Shown piece after piece: positions 8,064-60,184 of a DNA stretch of 64,000 nucleotides (within the stretch, counting starts at the first letter, position 1; each line of letters begins with the position of its first letter). Made by a program: the position numbers and the translations under genes. This stretch comes from a virus (taxonomy: Duplodnaviria; Heunggongvirae; Uroviricota; Caudoviricetes): the IMG/VR virus record IMGVR_UViG_2541047857_000009, one strand, 5' to 3'. The notes below the pieces were generated by a model. It worked only from the letters and a program-made list of their open reading frames with translations, did not search any database and was not told where the DNA came from.

Positions 8064-8753
8064 ATGAACAGTCAGCAACTGGAATACGTACGTCAGCAGC
8101 TCATTGTGGCGACCGCCGATCTGAGCGGGGCGACGAAAGGCCAACTGGTAGCTTTCGCCGAGAACGCGCAATTCACCGCTACAGCGCGTAGCCGGGGCCG
8201 GAAGAAAGTTTATGATGTGCAGAAAAAGCGCATGGTTAACCCTGATAGTCCGCCGATGAGCGGCAGCCAGTCCCGCGCCAAGGGATCGTCAATCGCTCTG
8301 GTGTGCCCGGTAGAGTTCATGACAGCATCATGGCGCCGCGCTGTCTTGTCTCTTGACGACCATCAGAAAGCGTGGCTGCTGTGGAACTACAGTGAGAACA
8401 TCCGCTTCGAGTACCAGGTGGCGATCACCCATTGGGCGTGGTCAGAATTCCGGGAGCAACTTGGCGCGAAGAAGGTGGCTGGCAAGACGATGGAGCGCCT
8501 GAAGAAGCTTATATGGCTGGCGGCGCAGGACGTTAAAGCGGAGCTGGCGGGGCGCGAGACGTACGAATATCAGGCGCTGGCGGAACTAGCGGGTGTTGCA
8601 AAATCAACCTGGACAGAGACGTATCTGCCTCACTGGCTGGCAATGCGTAACAGCTTTAAGCGACTCGATAGCGGTGCGCTTATCTCAGTAACGCGATCAC
8701 GTTCACAACAAAAGGCGACAAATTTGGATGTAAGTCTTGCAAAACCGAACTGA
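8064..8753 (+). CDS. Late-gene antiterminator Q-like protein
   Basis: Position after rusA and immediately before late terminator, tRNA and lysis genes; 229 aa. Confidence 0.6.
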   Translation: MNSQQLEYVRQQLIVATADLSGATKGQLVAFAENAQFTATARSRGRKKVYDVQKKRMVNPDSPPMSGSQSRAKGSSIALVCPVEFMTASWRRAVLSLDDHQKAWLLWNYSENIRFEYQVAITHWAWSEFREQLGAKKVAGKTMERLKKLIWLAAQDVKAELAGRETYEYQALAELAGVAKSTWTETYLPHWLAMRNSFKRLDSGALISVTRSRSQQKATNLDVSLAKPN

Positions 8754-9201: not shown

Positions 9202-9276
9202 GCCGGTCTAGTTCAGTGGCAGAACGGCAGCCTTGTAAGCTGCGCGTCAGAGGTTCGATTCCTTTGCCCGGCACCA
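9202..9276 (+). tRNA. tRNA, anticodon TGT (Thr-like), phage-encoded
   Basis: Hand-folded cloverleaf: D-stem GTTC/GAAC, anticodon arm GCAGC-CTTGTAA-GCTGC, T-loop TTCGATT, 3' ACCA; one acceptor mismatch. Confidence 0.55.
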
Positions 9277-9440: not shown

Positions 9441-9842
9441 ATGTCTGAGACCTTCACTATCGTAGGCGTTGGTCTTACATCGTCATCAGTCGGTGTAACC
9501 TTTGCCACGCTGTTTCCGGAGGCGACTCCAGCAGTGATGCTCGGATCACTCGCCGGAACTGCGCTATACGTTCTGACCTCAGATCCCCATCAACTCTGGA
9601 AGCAGGCTATCTTTGCGCTGATATCGTTTATCAGTGGCGTGTTCTTCTCCGTACCCATGGCGAAAATCATGGCCGGAATCATCAACACGCCGTTAAGCCT
9701 GATGAAGCCACCAGCCAGCATTGAGGTATCGCCAGCTGTCGGTGCAATTGTCACTGCTTCCATTTCCGTGGCAGTCCTGCTGCGTATTCTCCGCAAATCC
9801 AAAAGCGGGAAGATGCCGGGGCTGGGGGAGGAAGATAAATGA
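9441..9842 (+). CDS. Holin-like membrane protein
   Basis: Three hydrophobic segments and charged C-terminus; first gene of lysis cassette. Confidence 0.6.
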   Translation: MSETFTIVGVGLTSSSVGVTFATLFPEATPAVMLGSLAGTALYVLTSDPHQLWKQAIFALISFISGVFFSVPMAKIMAGIINTPLSLMKPPASIEVSPAVGAIVTASISVAVLLRILRKSKSGKMPGLGEEDK

Positions 9843-10114
9843 CATGGCAGCTTCTTCTGATGGATGCAAACGCCATAGTTTGCCTGTTAATCATGGTCAG
9901 GCTGATGTTTTTCCGGAAAGAGGGAAAGCGTCATCGCCTGAGTGTCGCGGTGCTGGCCTACCTGGTCATACTTGCCGCCGGATTCAACGCCTTCAACATT
10001 CTGCTCGGCCACTACGTTCAGGTTAACCTTGGCGACCTGCTGCTGAACTCCGTCATATGCATGGCGGTGTGGCTGGCGCGTGGGAACCTGGCGAAGGTCG
10101 TTATAACGGAGTAG
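9839..10114 (+). CDS. Holin/antiholin-like small membrane protein
   Basis: 91 aa with two or three TM segments, directly upstream of endolysin. Confidence 0.6.
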   Translation: MTWQLLLMDANAIVCLLIMVRLMFFRKEGKRHRLSVAVLAYLVILAAGFNAFNILLGHYVQVNLGDLLLNSVICMAVWLARGNLAKVVITE

Positions 10115-10117
10115 TCC

Positions 10118-10558
10118 ATGCAAACCAGCGAAAAGGGCATTGCCCTAATCAAAGAATTCGAAGGCTGTAGACTCACTGCTTACCAGGACAGCGTGGGCGT
10201 ATGGACGATCGGCTATGGCTGGACTCAACCTGTGGATGGAAAACCAATCCGCGCCGGGATGACTATCAAGCAGGAAACAGCAGAACGTCTGCTGAAGACC
10301 GGGCTGGTCAGCTATGAAAACGACGTGTCCCGCCTGGTTAAAGTCGGCTTGACTCAGGGGCAATTCGACGCCCTGGTGTCGTTCACGTATAACCTCGGCG
10401 CTCGGTCATTGTCGACATCGACACTCCTGCGAAAACTCAATGCCGGTGATTACGCTGGTGCTGCTGATGAGTTCCCGCGCTGGAACAAAGCAGGTGGCAA
10501 AGTCCTGAACGGGCTAACCCGTCGGCGTGAGGCGGAGCGCGCTCTGTTTCTGTCGTGA
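10118..10558 (+). CDS. Endolysin, GH24 lysozyme (T4 lysozyme-like)
   Basis: KEFEGCRLTAYQDSVGVWTIGYG catalytic region typical of phage lysozyme. Confidence 0.9.
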   Translation: MQTSEKGIALIKEFEGCRLTAYQDSVGVWTIGYGWTQPVDGKPIRAGMTIKQETAERLLKTGLVSYENDVSRLVKVGLTQGQFDALVSFTYNLGARSLSTSTLLRKLNAGDYAGAADEFPRWNKAGGKVLNGLTRRREAERALFLS

Positions 10559-10941
10559 TTAGCGCACTGGTTAAGCGTTACTGGCTGCAACTGATTGTGG
10601 TGGCGGTAATCGGCGTGCTGGCGTTCTTCGTGAACCACTACCGCGACAACGCCATTACCTACAAAGACCAGCGCGACAAGGCGACGGTCAGGGCAGATAC
10701 ATCGGAGGCGATCACCAGCAACGTGATCACCACGATGAACCTCATCCGTGACATTTCACAGGCTACCCAGAATGCAAAGAACGAACTGGCCCATAAAGGC
10801 GAAACGCGCATTGTCTACATCAGGCAGGCGCTTGAAGGCGATCCGTGCGCTAACCAGCTTGTTCCTTCTGCCGCTGCTGACAGCCTGCGGGAATACGCAG
10901 ACAGTTTACGTTCCGGCCCCGGTGGTTCCGATAAGCGCTGA
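10555..10941 (+). CDS. Rz-like i-spanin
   Basis: N-terminal TM segment, coiled-coil periplasmic region, position after endolysin. Confidence 0.8.
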   Translation: MISALVKRYWLQLIVVAVIGVLAFFVNHYRDNAITYKDQRDKATVRADTSEAITSNVITTMNLIRDISQATQNAKNELAHKGETRIVYIRQALEGDPCANQLVPSAAADSLREYADSLRSGPGGSDKR

Positions 10942-11092
10942 CCTGACAGCTGACACGCCGATCCCCGGAATTACGGTTCCGTTCACGTGGCAGGCAAGTC
11001 TGGAGTTAAACGCTCAGCTCTACACGGCGCTGGGGCAGTGCAATCTGGATAAGGCTGCGATCAGGAAAATTGAAGAAGCGAGAAAAAAATAA
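10772..11092 (+). CDS. Rz1-like o-spanin lipoprotein (overlaps Rz in +1 frame and extends past it)
   Basis: Lipobox LLTAC then Pro-rich PAPVVPISADLTADTPIPGITVP; start codon uncertain. Confidence 0.6.
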   Translation: MQRTNWPIKAKRALSTSGRRLKAIRALTSLFLLPLLTACGNTQTVYVPAPVVPISADLTADTPIPGITVPFTWQASLELNAQLYTALGQCNLDKAAIRKIEEARKK

Positions 11093-11185
11093 ATTGAATT
11101 CGAGAAATGAAAGTAGTAAAAGTCAGTCATGCTGTGAGCAGACCAGCTGAAGAGAAATCACCAAGTATCAAAAACAAAATTCTGA

Positions 11186-11211
11186 GCCTCGGCAATCGCC
11201 GGGGCTTTTTT
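11186..11211 (+). terminator. Intrinsic terminator after lysis cassette
   Basis: GCCTCGG-CAATCG-CCGGGGC hairpin followed by TTTTTT. Confidence 0.65.
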
Positions 11212-11364
11212 GTATCCGCATTTCACCGCGCACCGCAGCGCATTCAACCCACGTCGAACCATACCCTTTGAAATGAGCCTTTGAGGAAGTCAGTTAGTGC
11301 TGGCGAGCCTCGACGGGCTGATTTCCTATGCGGCAAAGGTTCATCTCAAAGAAAGGTACACGCT

Positions 11365-56257: not shown

Positions 56258-56333
56258 GGCCCTTTAGCTCAGTGGTGAGAGCGAGCGACTCATAATCGCC
56301 AGGTCGCTGGTTCAAATCCAGCAAGGGCCACCA
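56258..56333 (+). tRNA. tRNA with CAT anticodon (ileX/ileZ-like; Ile2 or Met)
   Basis: GGCCCTTTAGCTCAGTGG...CTCATAA...TTCAAATCC...GGGCCACCA; perfect acceptor stem. Confidence 0.85.
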
Positions 56334-56340
56334 TCACATA

Positions 56341-56417
56341 CCGCCATTAGCTCATCAGGAAAGAGCGCCAGCCTTCGAAGCTGGTTGCGCGGAGTTCGGG
56401 TCCCCGAAGGCGGTCCA
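56341..56417 (+). tRNA. tRNA-Arg-like (anticodon TCG), degenerate stems
   Basis: Clear anticodon arm CCAGC-CTTCGAA-GCTGG, D-stem GCTC/GAGC, T-loop TTCGGGT, 3' TCCA; mismatches in acceptor and T stems. Confidence 0.45.
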
Positions 56418-56440
56418 TTATCTGTATCCTGCGTTGTTAG

Positions 56441-56517
56441 CTCAGCCGGACAGAGCAATTGCCTTCTAAGCAATCGGTCACTGGTTCGAATCCAGTACAA
56501 CGCGCCACACTTATTTT
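56441..56517 (+). tRNA. tRNA-Arg (anticodon TCT)
   Basis: Perfect cloverleaf: acceptor GCGTTGT/ACAACGC, anticodon loop CTTCTAA, T-loop TTCGAAT, 3' GCCA. Confidence 0.85.
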
Positions 56518-58886: not shown

Positions 58887-59421
58887 ATGAACGCAAAAAT
58901 CAAATACGGCCTGTCAGCTGCAGTTCTGGCGCTGATTGGAGCAGGCGCATCAGCTCCTCAGATACTTGACCAGTTTCTGGATGAAAAAGAGGGTAACCAC
59001 ACTACGGCATACCGCGATGGTTCCGGCAACTGGACCATCTGTCGGGGGGGCCACGATGGTGGATGGAAAACCCGTTTTTCCCGGTATGAAACTGTCGAAG
59101 GAAAAATGCGACCAGGTCAACGCCATTGAGCGTGATAAGGCGCTGGCATGGGTGGAGAAAAACATCAAAGTGCCATTGAGCGAACCCCAGAAAGCGGGGA
59201 TCGCGTCATTCTGTCCGTACAACATTGGTCCCGGTAAGTGTTTCCCGTCGACGTTTTATAAACGAATTAATGCAGGTGATCGCAGGGGAGCGTGTGAGGC
59301 GATTCGCTGGTGGATTAAGGACGGTGGCAGAGACTGCCGTATTCGTTCAAACAACTGCTACGGTCAGGTATCCCGTCGTGACCAGGAGAGCGCGCTGGCG
59401 TGCTGGGGTATCGACAGATAA
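58887..59421 (+). pseudogene. SAR-type endolysin (lysozyme) interrupted by +1 frameshift in a G7 tract
   Basis: Two overlapping frames (58887..59129, 58936..59421) give one lysozyme if G-run 59044-59050 is six G; N-terminal SAR-like hydrophobic segment. Confidence 0.8.
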
Positions 59422-59619
59422 GCAGAATATTTTGCTGAAAAATAAGGCATGGCCACGCGGGCGGATAACATGAAATCCTGCGAAGTGGCGAAACGTAAGT
59501 GAATAAAAGTAAAAACCCCGTTTGTTGGCACCAAGCGGGGTTTTGTGTTTCCTGACTCCGGAAAAGTCAAAGGAGAAAGTGTGTTTGATTTTAGCAAACT
59601 GATTCGGGAGATTCGAGTG

Positions 59620-59718
59620 ATGGCTGAAAAATTATCCACCTGGAAGTTCATTCTTATCTGGCTGGTGTTTGTGATTATGGCCTCTGGTTATTTCATCGGT
59701 CAGATACGCTGGTGGTGA
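59620..59718 (+). CDS. Small hydrophobic peptide (32 aa), hypothetical
   Basis: Own translation [39 protein letters not shown]; stop adjacent to Rz start. Confidence 0.3.
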
Positions 59719-59719
59719 A

Positions 59720-60184
59720 ATGAACCGCGTACTGTGCGTGGTCATCATTGCCCTGCTGGTGGCCTGTGGTGCGCTTAGTCTGGGGCTGAATCATTACCGT
59801 GATAACGCCATTACCTACAAAGCCCAGCGCGACAAAAATGTCAGAGAACTGAAGCTGGCGAACGCGGCAATTACTGACATGCAGATGCGTCAGCGTGATG
59901 TTGCTGCGCTCGATGCAAAATACACGAAGGAGTTAGCTGATGCGAAAGCTGAAAATGATGCTCTGCGTGATGATGTTGCCGCTGGTCGTCGTCGGTTGCA
60001 CATCAAAGCAGTCTGTCAGTCAGTGCGTGAAGCCACCACCGCCTCCGGCGTGGATAATGCAGCCTCCCCCCGACTGGCAGACACCGCTGAACGGGATTAT
60101 TTCACCCTCAGAGCGCGACTGATAATAATGCAAAAACAACTTGAAGGGGCACAGCTATACATTCGAGAGCAATGCCTCAGATAA
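59720..60184 (+). CDS. Rz i-spanin
   Basis: N-terminal TM segment, periplasmic coiled coil; lambda Rz-like. Confidence 0.85.
59940..60122 (+). CDS. Rz1 o-spanin lipoprotein (embedded in Rz, +1 frame)
   Basis: Lipobox VVVGC then Pro-rich [21 protein letters not shown]. Confidence 0.85.

Follow-up and report, generated by a model that had tools for sequence, protein, structure and literature searches.

Two contrasting spanin layouts occur in the window, by which we mean the whole 64,000-nucleotide stretch of DNA analyzed, as the preliminary description had proposed for its two prophages. Positions 10555-11092 very probably carry the final two genes of an intact lysis cassette (holin, holin, endolysin, spanins) belonging to a lambdoid prophage (prophage 1), together encoding a two-component spanin in the overlapped layout, with the o-spanin (the Rz1/LysC equivalent) most likely translated from TTG 10832. 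In prophage 2, the layout is embedded. The contrast extends to family membership, with LysC (PF23793), PHROG 456 and PHROG 214 identifying the prophage 1 pair and PF03245, PF06085 and identity to lambda identifying the prophage 2 pair. Both layouts are established categories, and their occurrence in two neighbouring E. coli prophages is ordinary and of a kind already known. According to Kongari et al. 2018 (PMC6139136), the overlapped layout is the commonest, accounting for 228 of 528 two-component spanins, with 182 embedded. Coordinates are collected in Table 1.

Table 1. Positions in the window of the prophage 1 lysis genes, their internal features and the prophage 2 spanin pair
Feature	Coordinates	Strand	Remarks
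Antiterminator Q	8064-8753		Upstream of holin candidate 1
tRNA-Thr	9202-9276		Upstream of holin candidate 1
Holin candidate 1	9441..9842	+	133 aa; Pfam Phage_holin_8 2.5e-11; phrog_198 (holin) 1.9e-30
Holin candidate 2	9839..10114	+	91 aa; Pfam Phage_holin_3_7 1.9e-20; phrog_217
Endolysin	10118..10558	+	146 aa; T4-type lysozyme fold family; Pfam Phage_lysozyme 3e-51; phrog_7
i-spanin (Rz equivalent)	10555..10941	+	128 aa; phrog_214 'Rz-like spanin' 2.7e-35
Transmembrane segment of i-spanin	10579..10635	+	Residues 9-27, YWLQLIVVAVIGVLAFFVN; top 19-residue Kyte-Doolittle window, mean 2.16
Segment just after i-spanin membrane anchor	10633..10680	+	16 residues, 48 nt; common to the prophage 2 lambda-type Rz
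Alternative o-spanin start, ATG	10772..10774	+	38-residue signal peptide, 8 positive charges
Shine-Dalgarno-like AGGCAGG	10822..10828	+	3 nt before TTG 10832; formed by Rz codons AGG (Arg) and CAG (Gln)
o-spanin (Rz1/LysC equivalent)	10832..11092	+	Start most likely TTG; 86-aa precursor, 68-aa mature lipoprotein (predicted)
Lipobox L-L-T-A-C	10874..10888	+	Read from sequence, within LFLLPLLTA-CG; region conserved in relatives
o-spanin part past Rz stop	10942..11092	+	Residues 38-86; predicted C-terminal helix with invariant Cys (GQCNLDK)
Intrinsic-terminator-like hairpin and T run	11184..11217	+	10-bp stem, 7 GC pairs, then TTTTTTGT
Prophage 2 i-spanin, lambda Rz type	59720..60184	+	154 aa; Pfam Phage_lysis (PF03245) 1.4e-52, 177.7 bits
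Prophage 2 o-spanin, lambda Rz1 type	59940..60122	+	60 aa; Pfam Rz1 (PF06085) 5.4e-20, 71.3 bits

The prophage 1 cassette runs in the order Q antiterminator, tRNA, two holin-family genes, lysozyme, spanins and terminator. The two holin-family genes and the lysozyme gene lie directly upstream of the spanins, with overlapping stops and starts: the ATG of holin candidate 2, which has strong Shine-Dalgarno pairing (-11.3 kcal/mol), overlaps the stop of holin candidate 1, and the GTG start of Rz overlaps the endolysin stop (GTGA). The terminator-like hairpin sits 92 nt downstream of the o-spanin stop.

By hydropathy, the prophage 1 Rz has one transmembrane segment, near its N terminus and directly after K7 and R8; the remainder of the protein is polar and is the predicted periplasmic C-terminal body of an i-spanin. 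Rz is 38% identical to phage SfV Rz over 120 aa, nearly its full length, and the C-terminal motif C..xVPxAAADxLR is common to the prophage 1 Rz, SfV Rz and Mu gp23. No Pfam family matched it significantly; DUF2570 (PF10828), which is NCBI's name for the partner i-spanin, scored 14.9 bits, below the gathering threshold of 26.6. In the segment following the membrane anchor, 44 of 48 nt are identical between the prophage 1 and prophage 2 Rz genes, which are otherwise unrelated. Database similarity breaks at this segment, diversity among relatives drops at 10633 from about 0.4 to about 0.05, and the post-anchor motif precedes both spanin types in viral contigs.

The o-spanin ORF is open from 10748 to 11092 in the +1 frame relative to Rz (coordinates modulo 3 are 1 for Rz and 2 for the o-spanin ORF). 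From TTG 10832 it overlaps Rz by 110 nt and then continues for 151 nt beyond the Rz stop, in agreement with the extension of about 150 nt given in the preliminary description; the +1-frame overlap and the LLTAC lipobox that it reported are likewise read in the sequence. The o-spanin gene thus begins within the i-spanin gene but in a different frame, and continues past the i-spanin stop, which is the mark of the overlapped layout. Its product matches Pfam LysC (PF23793) with an E-value of 1.4e-14 (54.2 bits against a gathering threshold of 27) over ORF residues 43-111 and profile positions 2-68 of 69, matches phrog_456 (4.9e-25) and is 50% identical to SfV Rz1. The 123 database homologues are spread across Enterobacterales and have an invariant C-terminal motif and a conserved lipobox, the latter being absent from 47 of 120.

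When translation begins at TTG 10832, the signal peptide comprises 18 residues (MKAIRALTSLFLLPLLTA) with 2 positive charges and is followed by CG. The lipobox Cys (codon 10886-10888) is then Cys19, and residue +2 of the mature protein is Gly, so that there is no Asp inner-membrane retention signal. Checked by rule, this N terminus combines the positive N-region, hydrophobic core, lipobox Cys and freedom from +2 Asp that characterize a lipoprotein signal. An earlier characterization of the protein as 'Pro-rich' is partly apt: Pro is present, at 6 of the 68 mature residues and all within the first 32, but is sparser than in the lambda-type protein (10 of 41). The invariant residues are C70, N71, D73 and K74. 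An AlphaFold2 model, of low pTM (0.37), predicts a helix for the signal peptide, then an extended linker that contains Pro, and finally a C-terminal helix modelled with confidence at residues 53-85 (pLDDT about 86-91).

In prophage 2, Rz1 lies wholly inside Rz in the +1 frame, as previously described. The Rz1 start lies 220 nt inside Rz and the Rz1 end 62 nt short of the Rz stop (220 and 59 nt in lambda), and its Shine-Dalgarno pairing is -8.3 kcal/mol. Both proteins of this pair score above the Pfam thresholds for their lambda-type families; a Pfam search with the prophage 1 pair gave no match to PF03245 or PF06085. A search of NCBIfam with both spanin pairs (four proteins) returned no match to a spanin model.

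The overlapping frame was also examined through codon-position variability in 72 distinct relatives of the prophage 1 genes, most of which are >80% identical and hence not independent. Upstream of 10832, variability is highest at Rz third positions (0.157-0.176), and between 10832 and 10886 it moves from the Rz frame to the +1 frame. From the Cys codon on, inside the overlap too, +1-frame third positions show values of 0.153-0.164 compared with 0.014-0.029 at the remaining positions, and past the Rz stop (10942..11092) they show 0.164 versus 0.029 and 0.016. The overlapping frame is therefore under coding selection. Judged by this coding-type periodicity in relatives and by the LysC match, the +1-frame ORF is not a chance ORF.

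The preliminary description had called the start of this gene 'not obvious', and with reason. There are five in-frame candidates (GTG 10748, ATG 10772, TTG 10832, TTG 10859 and GTG 10922) and public annotations disagree, assigning at least four different starts to near-identical genes. The most likely start is TTG 10832. Its pairing with the 16S 3' end (-6.5 kcal/mol) is the best among the +1-frame candidates, pairing of -6 kcal/mol or better being found at about 10% of cassette positions. The TTG and its Shine-Dalgarno-like triplet require the Rz codons CTT (Leu, 16% usage) and AGG (Arg, 6%), and the combination arises in 1% of synonymous Rz recodings. The TTG is kept in 70 of 72 relatives (the close relatives L021 and L024 are without it) and the AGG Arg codon in 67 of 72. 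A start codon lies 14-19 codons ahead of the Cys in 94 of 99 distinct relatives; distant relatives have an ATG at the position of TTG 10832, and L112 has an open frame for no more than 17 codons ahead of the Cys.

A possible but rather unlikely alternative is that the same spanin pair is made with the o-spanin translated from ATG 10772, giving a 106-aa precursor from a gene that overlaps Rz by 170 nt; use of both starts is also conceivable. No other ATG lies in the stretch over which the frame is open. All 72 distinct close relatives keep ATG 10772, although of the 66 Rz third positions in the surrounding region (10633-10831) just 5 do not vary; across relatives overall it is found in 86 of 99. 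GenBank and the curated spanin table of Kongari et al. 2018 (PMC6139136) both give the equivalent long start for SfV Rz1 (112 aa) and APSE-1. However, its Shine-Dalgarno pairing is weak (-2.5 kcal/mol), and its presence is unsurprising because it is expected in 31% of synonymous Rz recodings. Variation within 10772-10831 falls on Rz third positions, which are second positions in the +1 frame, and so reveals no protein-level constraint in that frame. The ATG is also missing from 13 of the 99 distinct relatives, nine of which have a start codon 15-19 codons before the Cys; in four of the 13 the frame is closed upstream of -38. A signal peptide of 38 residues would, moreover, be unusually long for signal peptidase II.

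The open +1 frame across 10772-10831 was considered as an argument for the ATG start and rejected as uninformative, since this interval is open by chance in 77% of synonymous recodings. Two functional starts, with ATG 10772 and TTG 10832 yielding long and short precursors, are a further, weaker possibility. N-terminal proteomics cannot reveal the start, because all residues ahead of the lipidated Cys are cleaved off by signal peptidase II no matter where translation begins.

It is very unlikely that the product is instead the short protein annotated by NCBI, which has 57 aa, begins at the equivalent of GTG 10922 and is without a signal peptide. RefSeq WP_001472179.1 ('Rz1-like lysis system protein LysC') is so annotated in two E. 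coli genomes, and the homologues without a lipobox would be in keeping with it, but this start forfeits the conserved signal peptide and lipobox that are the defining traits of an o-spanin, has Shine-Dalgarno pairing of just -1.7 kcal/mol and lies downstream of the point where +1-frame periodicity already begins. Wrong starts are a common annotation error according to Kongari et al. 2018 (PMC6139136), who list 64 o-spanins with wrong starts and 196 that were missed.

In all relatives in which both genes can be delimited, the layout is overlapped and the o-spanin gene ends 103-217 nt beyond the i-spanin gene; on this comparison of relatives, the overlapped layout is a family trait. A recent accident, in which a frameshift or premature stop shortened a longer Rz with an embedded Rz1 in a decaying cassette, might account for two further observations: the phrog_214 profile has 176 positions, with a weak match (E = 0.004) between its last 43 and the C-terminal end of the +1-frame product, and in one relative (L098, Kosakonia cowanii) Rz and Rz1 are fused into one reading frame. 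We nevertheless regard such an accident as highly improbable. The 128-aa length of Rz and the position of its stop are constant in all close relatives, and the protein is of similar length in SfV (130 aa), Mu (128 aa) and APSE-1 (129 aa). Every informative relative is overlapped and has a separate, lipobox-bearing o-spanin, whereas the fused forms are exceptional, have no o-spanin with a lipobox and resemble the products of frameshift mutation or of sequencing error.

Scarcely conceivable, finally, is an untranslated frame open by chance in and after Rz, leaving prophage 1 without an o-spanin: gene callers often skip or shorten the ORF and synonymous recoding readily leaves 10772-10831 open, but the LysC match is far over the cut-off, the Enterobacterales homologues keep the lipobox and C-terminal motif, the third-position periodicity includes the 151 nt past the Rz stop and the relatives are without frequent stops or frameshifts in the o-spanin frame.

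What is known of the spanin mechanism comes essentially from lambda Rz/Rz1, and beyond the 16-residue motif the prophage 1 proteins are not related to that pair. The prophage 1 i-spanin would be an inner-membrane protein with an N-terminal anchor and a periplasmic body. Translation of the o-spanin from TTG 10832 would make use of the Shine-Dalgarno-like AGGCAGG embedded in Rz codons, and signal peptidase II would then cut before Cys19, which would become lipidated. Since residue +2 is Gly and not Asp, the outer membrane is the proposed destination of the o-spanin. On the analogy of lambda Rz/Rz1, the two proteins may pair across the periplasm and, once the cell wall has been degraded by the endolysin, complete lysis by disrupting or fusing the outer membrane.

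Spanin modules appear, from these sequences, to have been exchanged at the post-anchor segment. With about even chances of being right, we suggest that 10633-10680 is a recombination joint in the i-spanin gene, at which one and the same holin-endolysin-anchor module is joined to one of two bodies, the lambda type with its embedded Rz1 or the SfV/LysC type with its overlapped Rz1, the layouts being swapped as cassettes between otherwise near-identical lysis regions. Kongari et al. 2018 (PMC6139136) report no i-spanin family that spans embedded and overlapped layouts and, if the suggestion is true, embedded/overlapped chimeras would be a small addition to their picture. The joint would also illustrate neatly how phage mosaicism can place a breakpoint within a gene, and could guide chimera experiments on how anchor and periplasmic body work together.

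The biological weight of the two pairs is little, as the layouts are textbook ones and near-identical genes are already in public databases. Their interest is chiefly for annotation. The prophage 1 o-spanin is best called from 10832 (TTG) to 11092, as a probable outer-membrane lipoprotein; the NCBI pipeline cuts it to 57 aa without a signal peptide in E. coli relatives, and does not call an embedded Rz1 like that of prophage 2 at all.

The overlapped two-component spanin was reportedly defined by Summer et al. 2007, with P2 LysB/LysC as the prototype. As in P2 lysB/lysC, the prophage 1 o-spanin gene starts within the i-spanin gene in the +1 frame and passes its stop by a similar length: the overlap is 146 nt with 145 nt beyond in P2 and 110 nt with 151 nt beyond in prophage 1. 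Both o-spanins belong to Pfam family PF23793 LysC, and both spanin gene pairs lie at the end of the lysis genes. Pairwise identity between the o-spanins is only 26% (E = 0.006), and pairwise comparison of the i-spanins gave no significant similarity. The surroundings also differ, P2 being a myovirus with lysA between the endolysin gene and lysB, whereas the prophage 1 cassette is lambdoid (Q, holins, endolysin, spanins).

The lambda system is represented more directly by prophage 2, whose Rz is 86% identical to lambda Rz and whose Rz1 is 97% identical (58/60 residues) to lambda Rz1, with the same geometry. Prophage 1 shares with lambda the combination of a membrane-anchored i-spanin and a predicted outer-membrane lipoprotein encoded in the +1 frame. 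Unlike in lambda, its o-spanin gene is not contained in Rz, and the protein bodies are unrelated to those of lambda, with only the post-anchor segment in common. The mature prophage 1 o-spanin is also longer than the lambda-type protein (68 residues versus 41 in prophage 2), has fewer Pro and has a predicted C-terminal helix.

The closest named phage homologues of the prophage 1 pair form the SfV Rz/Rz1 group, which also takes in SfII, SfIV, Mu (gp23 and an unannotated partner) and the APSE phages. Unlike the prophage 1 Rz, SfV Rz is without the lambda-type segment (11 residues) after the membrane anchor, and annotation gives the SfV o-spanin a long ATG start (112 aa), whereas that of prophage 1 most likely begins at a TTG (86 aa). 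The SfV pair is listed as 'ovl' in Kongari et al. 2018 (PMC6139136), and the prophage 1 pair is likewise overlapped.

The window comprises the E. coli chromosome around ompW/yciC, flanked by one prophage on either side. The preliminary description held that the spanin genes of the two prophages are arranged differently, and the ORF coordinates and frames confirm that those of prophage 1 are overlapped, whereas those of prophage 2 are embedded. The features that it gave for the prophage 1 o-spanin gene (a lipobox, the +1 frame and about 150 nt past the Rz stop) can also be read directly: the ORF encodes LFLLPLLTA/CG, with the Cys codon at 10886, and extends 151 nt past Rz. The pair closes a lambdoid late region made up of Q, tRNA-Thr, two holin-family genes, lysozyme and spanins, and is followed by a terminator, a KilA-N gene and the terminase. 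The lysis genes run stop-to-start, with the starts of the second holin and Rz overlapping the preceding stops and the endolysin ATG lying 3 nt after the holin stop. Both prophages carry phage-borne tRNA genes directly 5′ of the lysis region.

Coordinates of the lysis-region features and of the segments scored for nucleotide diversity
Feature	Coordinates	Details
Antiterminator Q	8064-8753	prophage 1 late region
tRNA-Thr(tgt)	9202-9276	prophage 1, just 5′ of lysis genes
Holin-family gene 1	9441-9842	prophage 1
Holin-family gene 2	9839-10114	prophage 1
Lysozyme (endolysin)	10118-10558	prophage 1
Rz	10555-10941	prophage 1; 128 aa; GTG start overlaps endolysin stop as GTGA
o-spanin ORF	open 10748-11092	prophage 1; +1 frame relative to Rz
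In-frame o-spanin start candidates	GTG 10748, ATG 10772, TTG 10832, TTG 10859, GTG 10922	prophage 1
Terminator, hairpin and T-run	11184-11217	3′ of prophage 1 spanin genes
tRNA-Met(cat), tRNA-Arg(tcg), tRNA-Arg(tct)	56258-56507	prophage 2, just 5′ of lysis region
Endolysin fragments	58887-59129 and 58936-59421	prophage 2; 80 aa and 161 aa
Rz	59720-60184	prophage 2
Rz1	59940-60122	prophage 2; 60 codons, +1 frame, wholly within Rz
Diversity segment	10633-10831 (two segments)	Rz position 1 0.056-0.059, position 2 0.029-0.046, position 3 0.157-0.176
Diversity segment	10832-10885	Rz position 1 0.069, position 2 0.024, position 3 0.069
Diversity segment	10886-10941 (still within Rz)	Rz position 1 0.153, position 2 0.019, position 3 0.014
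Diversity segment	10942-11050	Rz position 1 0.164, position 2 0.029, position 3 0.016

The +1-frame product of prophage 1 passes Pfam PF23793 (‘Rz1-like lysis system protein LysC’, 54.2 bits versus a cut-off of 27) and also matches phrog_456. The 128-aa Rz is a clear match to phrog_214 (‘Rz-like spanin’, 2.7e-35) and lies under the cut-off of Pfam DUF2570 in the profile comparison. The phrog_214 profile spans 176 positions and its tail matches the Rz1 C-terminus, probably because of fused ORFs such as that in L098, a related locus from Kosakonia cowanii. There, at about 1200-1700, the i-spanin frame continues without a break into the mature part of the o-spanin (...AADSLREYATVYVPAPVV...). The outcome is one Rz-Rz1 ORF without a separate lipoprotein, apparently the result of a frameshift mutation or of a sequencing error.

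To follow selection on the two frames, nucleotide diversity was scored per codon position in an alignment of the window with 82 related loci (72 distinct sequences), Rz position 1 being +1-frame position 3. The resulting pattern shows that coding selection acts on the +1 frame, beginning at about 10832-10886. At 10886-10941, variation falls on o-spanin rather than Rz third positions. Inside the overlap, the o-spanin frame dominates the variability pattern of the 72 distinct sequences, and o-spanin constraints seem to govern the evolution of the final 18 Rz residues, in agreement with the divergence of i-spanins in their overlapped C-terminal part (Kongari et al. 2018, PMC6139136). The layout is also overlapped in 50 more distant bacterial-genome loci, wherever both genes could be delimited, with the o-spanin ending 103-217 nt past the i-spanin stop. 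As most relatives are closely similar, these counts do not stand for independent events.

The prophage 1 Rz1 start had been described as not obvious, and indeed there are five in-frame candidates, on which public records differ. We consider TTG 10832 the probable start. The lipoprotein signal peptide that it yields is canonical, with 18 residues and two positive charges, and of the +1-frame candidates this codon has the strongest pairing with the 3′ end of the 16S rRNA (−6.5 kcal/mol via AGGCAGG; about 10% of cassette positions reach −6 kcal/mol or better). For this TTG, Rz must encode Leu by CTT (16% usage in prophage 1), and for the Shine-Dalgarno-like AGGCAGG it must encode Arg by AGG (6%); the two occur jointly in 1% of synonymous Rz recodings. 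Among the relatives, the TTG is kept in 70 of 72 and the AGG in 67 of 72, and a start codon lies 14-19 codons before the Cys in 94 of 99 distinct sequences. Distant relatives have an ATG near the equivalent position (MMIAL..., MRIVL...), the o-spanin frame of the related locus L112 opens just 17 codons before the Cys, and variation at 10772-10831 tracks the Rz frame only (72 distinct relatives). Initiation at ATG 10772, with dual use possible, is a less likely alternative. This codon is invariant in 72/72 relatives, compared with 5/66 neighbouring Rz third positions, is present in 86/99 and serves as the SfV and APSE-1 start in the curated table of Kongari et al. 2018 (PMC6139136), but it is expected by chance in 31% of synonymous Rz recodings and its 16S pairing is only −2.5 kcal/mol. 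A start at any other codon is improbable.

Database entries begin the gene at several of these codons. The NCBI pipeline calls a 57-aa ‘LysC’, without a signal peptide, from the equivalent of 10922; phage CobraSix is annotated from the equivalent of 10859, SfV and APSE-1 from that of ATG 10772, and many Enterobacter and Klebsiella entries from that of TTG 10832 (MKAIRALT...). No lipobox at all is present in 47/120 database homologues. Mis-annotation is seen in RefSeq for relatives (L001 2305-2478, L003 2221-2394 and L004 2421-2885): LysC-type o-spanins are shortened to 57 aa without the lipobox, and in the lambda-type pair the embedded Rz1 is unannotated. The useful products of the analysis are a best-supported start coordinate, a record of systematic mis-annotation and a small observation of module exchange.

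In the prophage 1 i-spanin, residues 9-27 form the membrane segment and Cys98 is the only periplasmic Cys. Its partner has a lipobox, Gly at +2, an extended linker that contains Pro (6 within mature residues 1-32) and a confidently predicted C-terminal helix (residues 53-85), which contains an invariant Cys within GQCNLDK and is coded wholly by the 151 nt past the Rz stop. By analogy with lambda Rz/Rz1, the o-spanin would be lipidated, sorted to the outer membrane and paired with the i-spanin across the periplasm; once endolysin had cleared the cell wall, the pair would disrupt or fuse the outer membrane.

Apart from a 16-residue motif just after the membrane anchor, the window's two Rz proteins are unrelated; in the motif, the DNA is identical at 44/48 nt (10633-10680 versus 59786-59833). 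Database similarity to prophage 1 breaks exactly here: Enterobacter phage ENT1 and E. coli XJ5.2 and L73 match at 94-95% from the holin through the motif and end there, and in CobraSix the similarity (94%) begins at the motif and continues downstream. In XJ5.2, the shared upstream module leads into a lambda/P22-type Rz of 156 aa that contains an embedded Rz1. Relatives show a diversity of about 0.4 up to 10633 and of about 0.05 from there on. At least 120 viral contigs bear the motif; of the 120 listed, 85 lead into Pro-rich Rz1 types that are embedded, 10 into the LysC type and one into a truncated Rz, and 24 ended at the contig end or were unclassifiable. The simplest reading is that the motif functions as a recombination joint inside the i-spanin gene. 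Functional constraint on the segment could explain its conservation, and is compatible with such a joint. The last 14 or so o-spanin codons (11051-11092) vary widely between relatives, with a diversity of 0.21-0.46 and alternative tails such as EARKK, SSRASQ, EERQHAK and SSRQGKNAQPQ; this variability suggests that the gene has another mosaic boundary at its 3′ end.

In prophage 2, the endolysin (rrrQ type, 58887-59421) is broken by a frameshift into two ORFs; E. coli ATCC 11775 has an identical sequence, which its annotation lists as a ‘lysozyme, frameshifted’ pseudogene. The lambda-type pair therefore lies within a probably defective lysis cassette. A small ORF directly 5′ of Rz (59545-59718) encodes a hydrophobic C-terminal segment; in ATCC 11775, its counterpart is simply labelled a hypothetical protein of 45 aa.

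Prophage 2 Rz and Rz1 are 86% and 97% identical to those of lambda, with the same offsets. The named phages nearest to the prophage 1 pair are SfV (o-spanin 50%, i-spanin 38% identity), SfII, SfIV, Mu and the APSE phages; SfV Rz is homologous to the prophage 1 Rz body but lacks the motif. P2 lysB/lysC, the family prototype, nearly matches the prophage 1 geometry, with an overlap of 146 nt and an extension of 145 nt past the i-spanin stop, but at only 26% sequence identity. Kongari et al. 2018 (PMC6139136) defined embedded, overlapped and separated layouts (182, 228 and 118 of 528 two-component spanins) and classed SfV, Mu and APSE-1 as overlapped. The contrast between the two prophages is therefore real, ordinary and already known.
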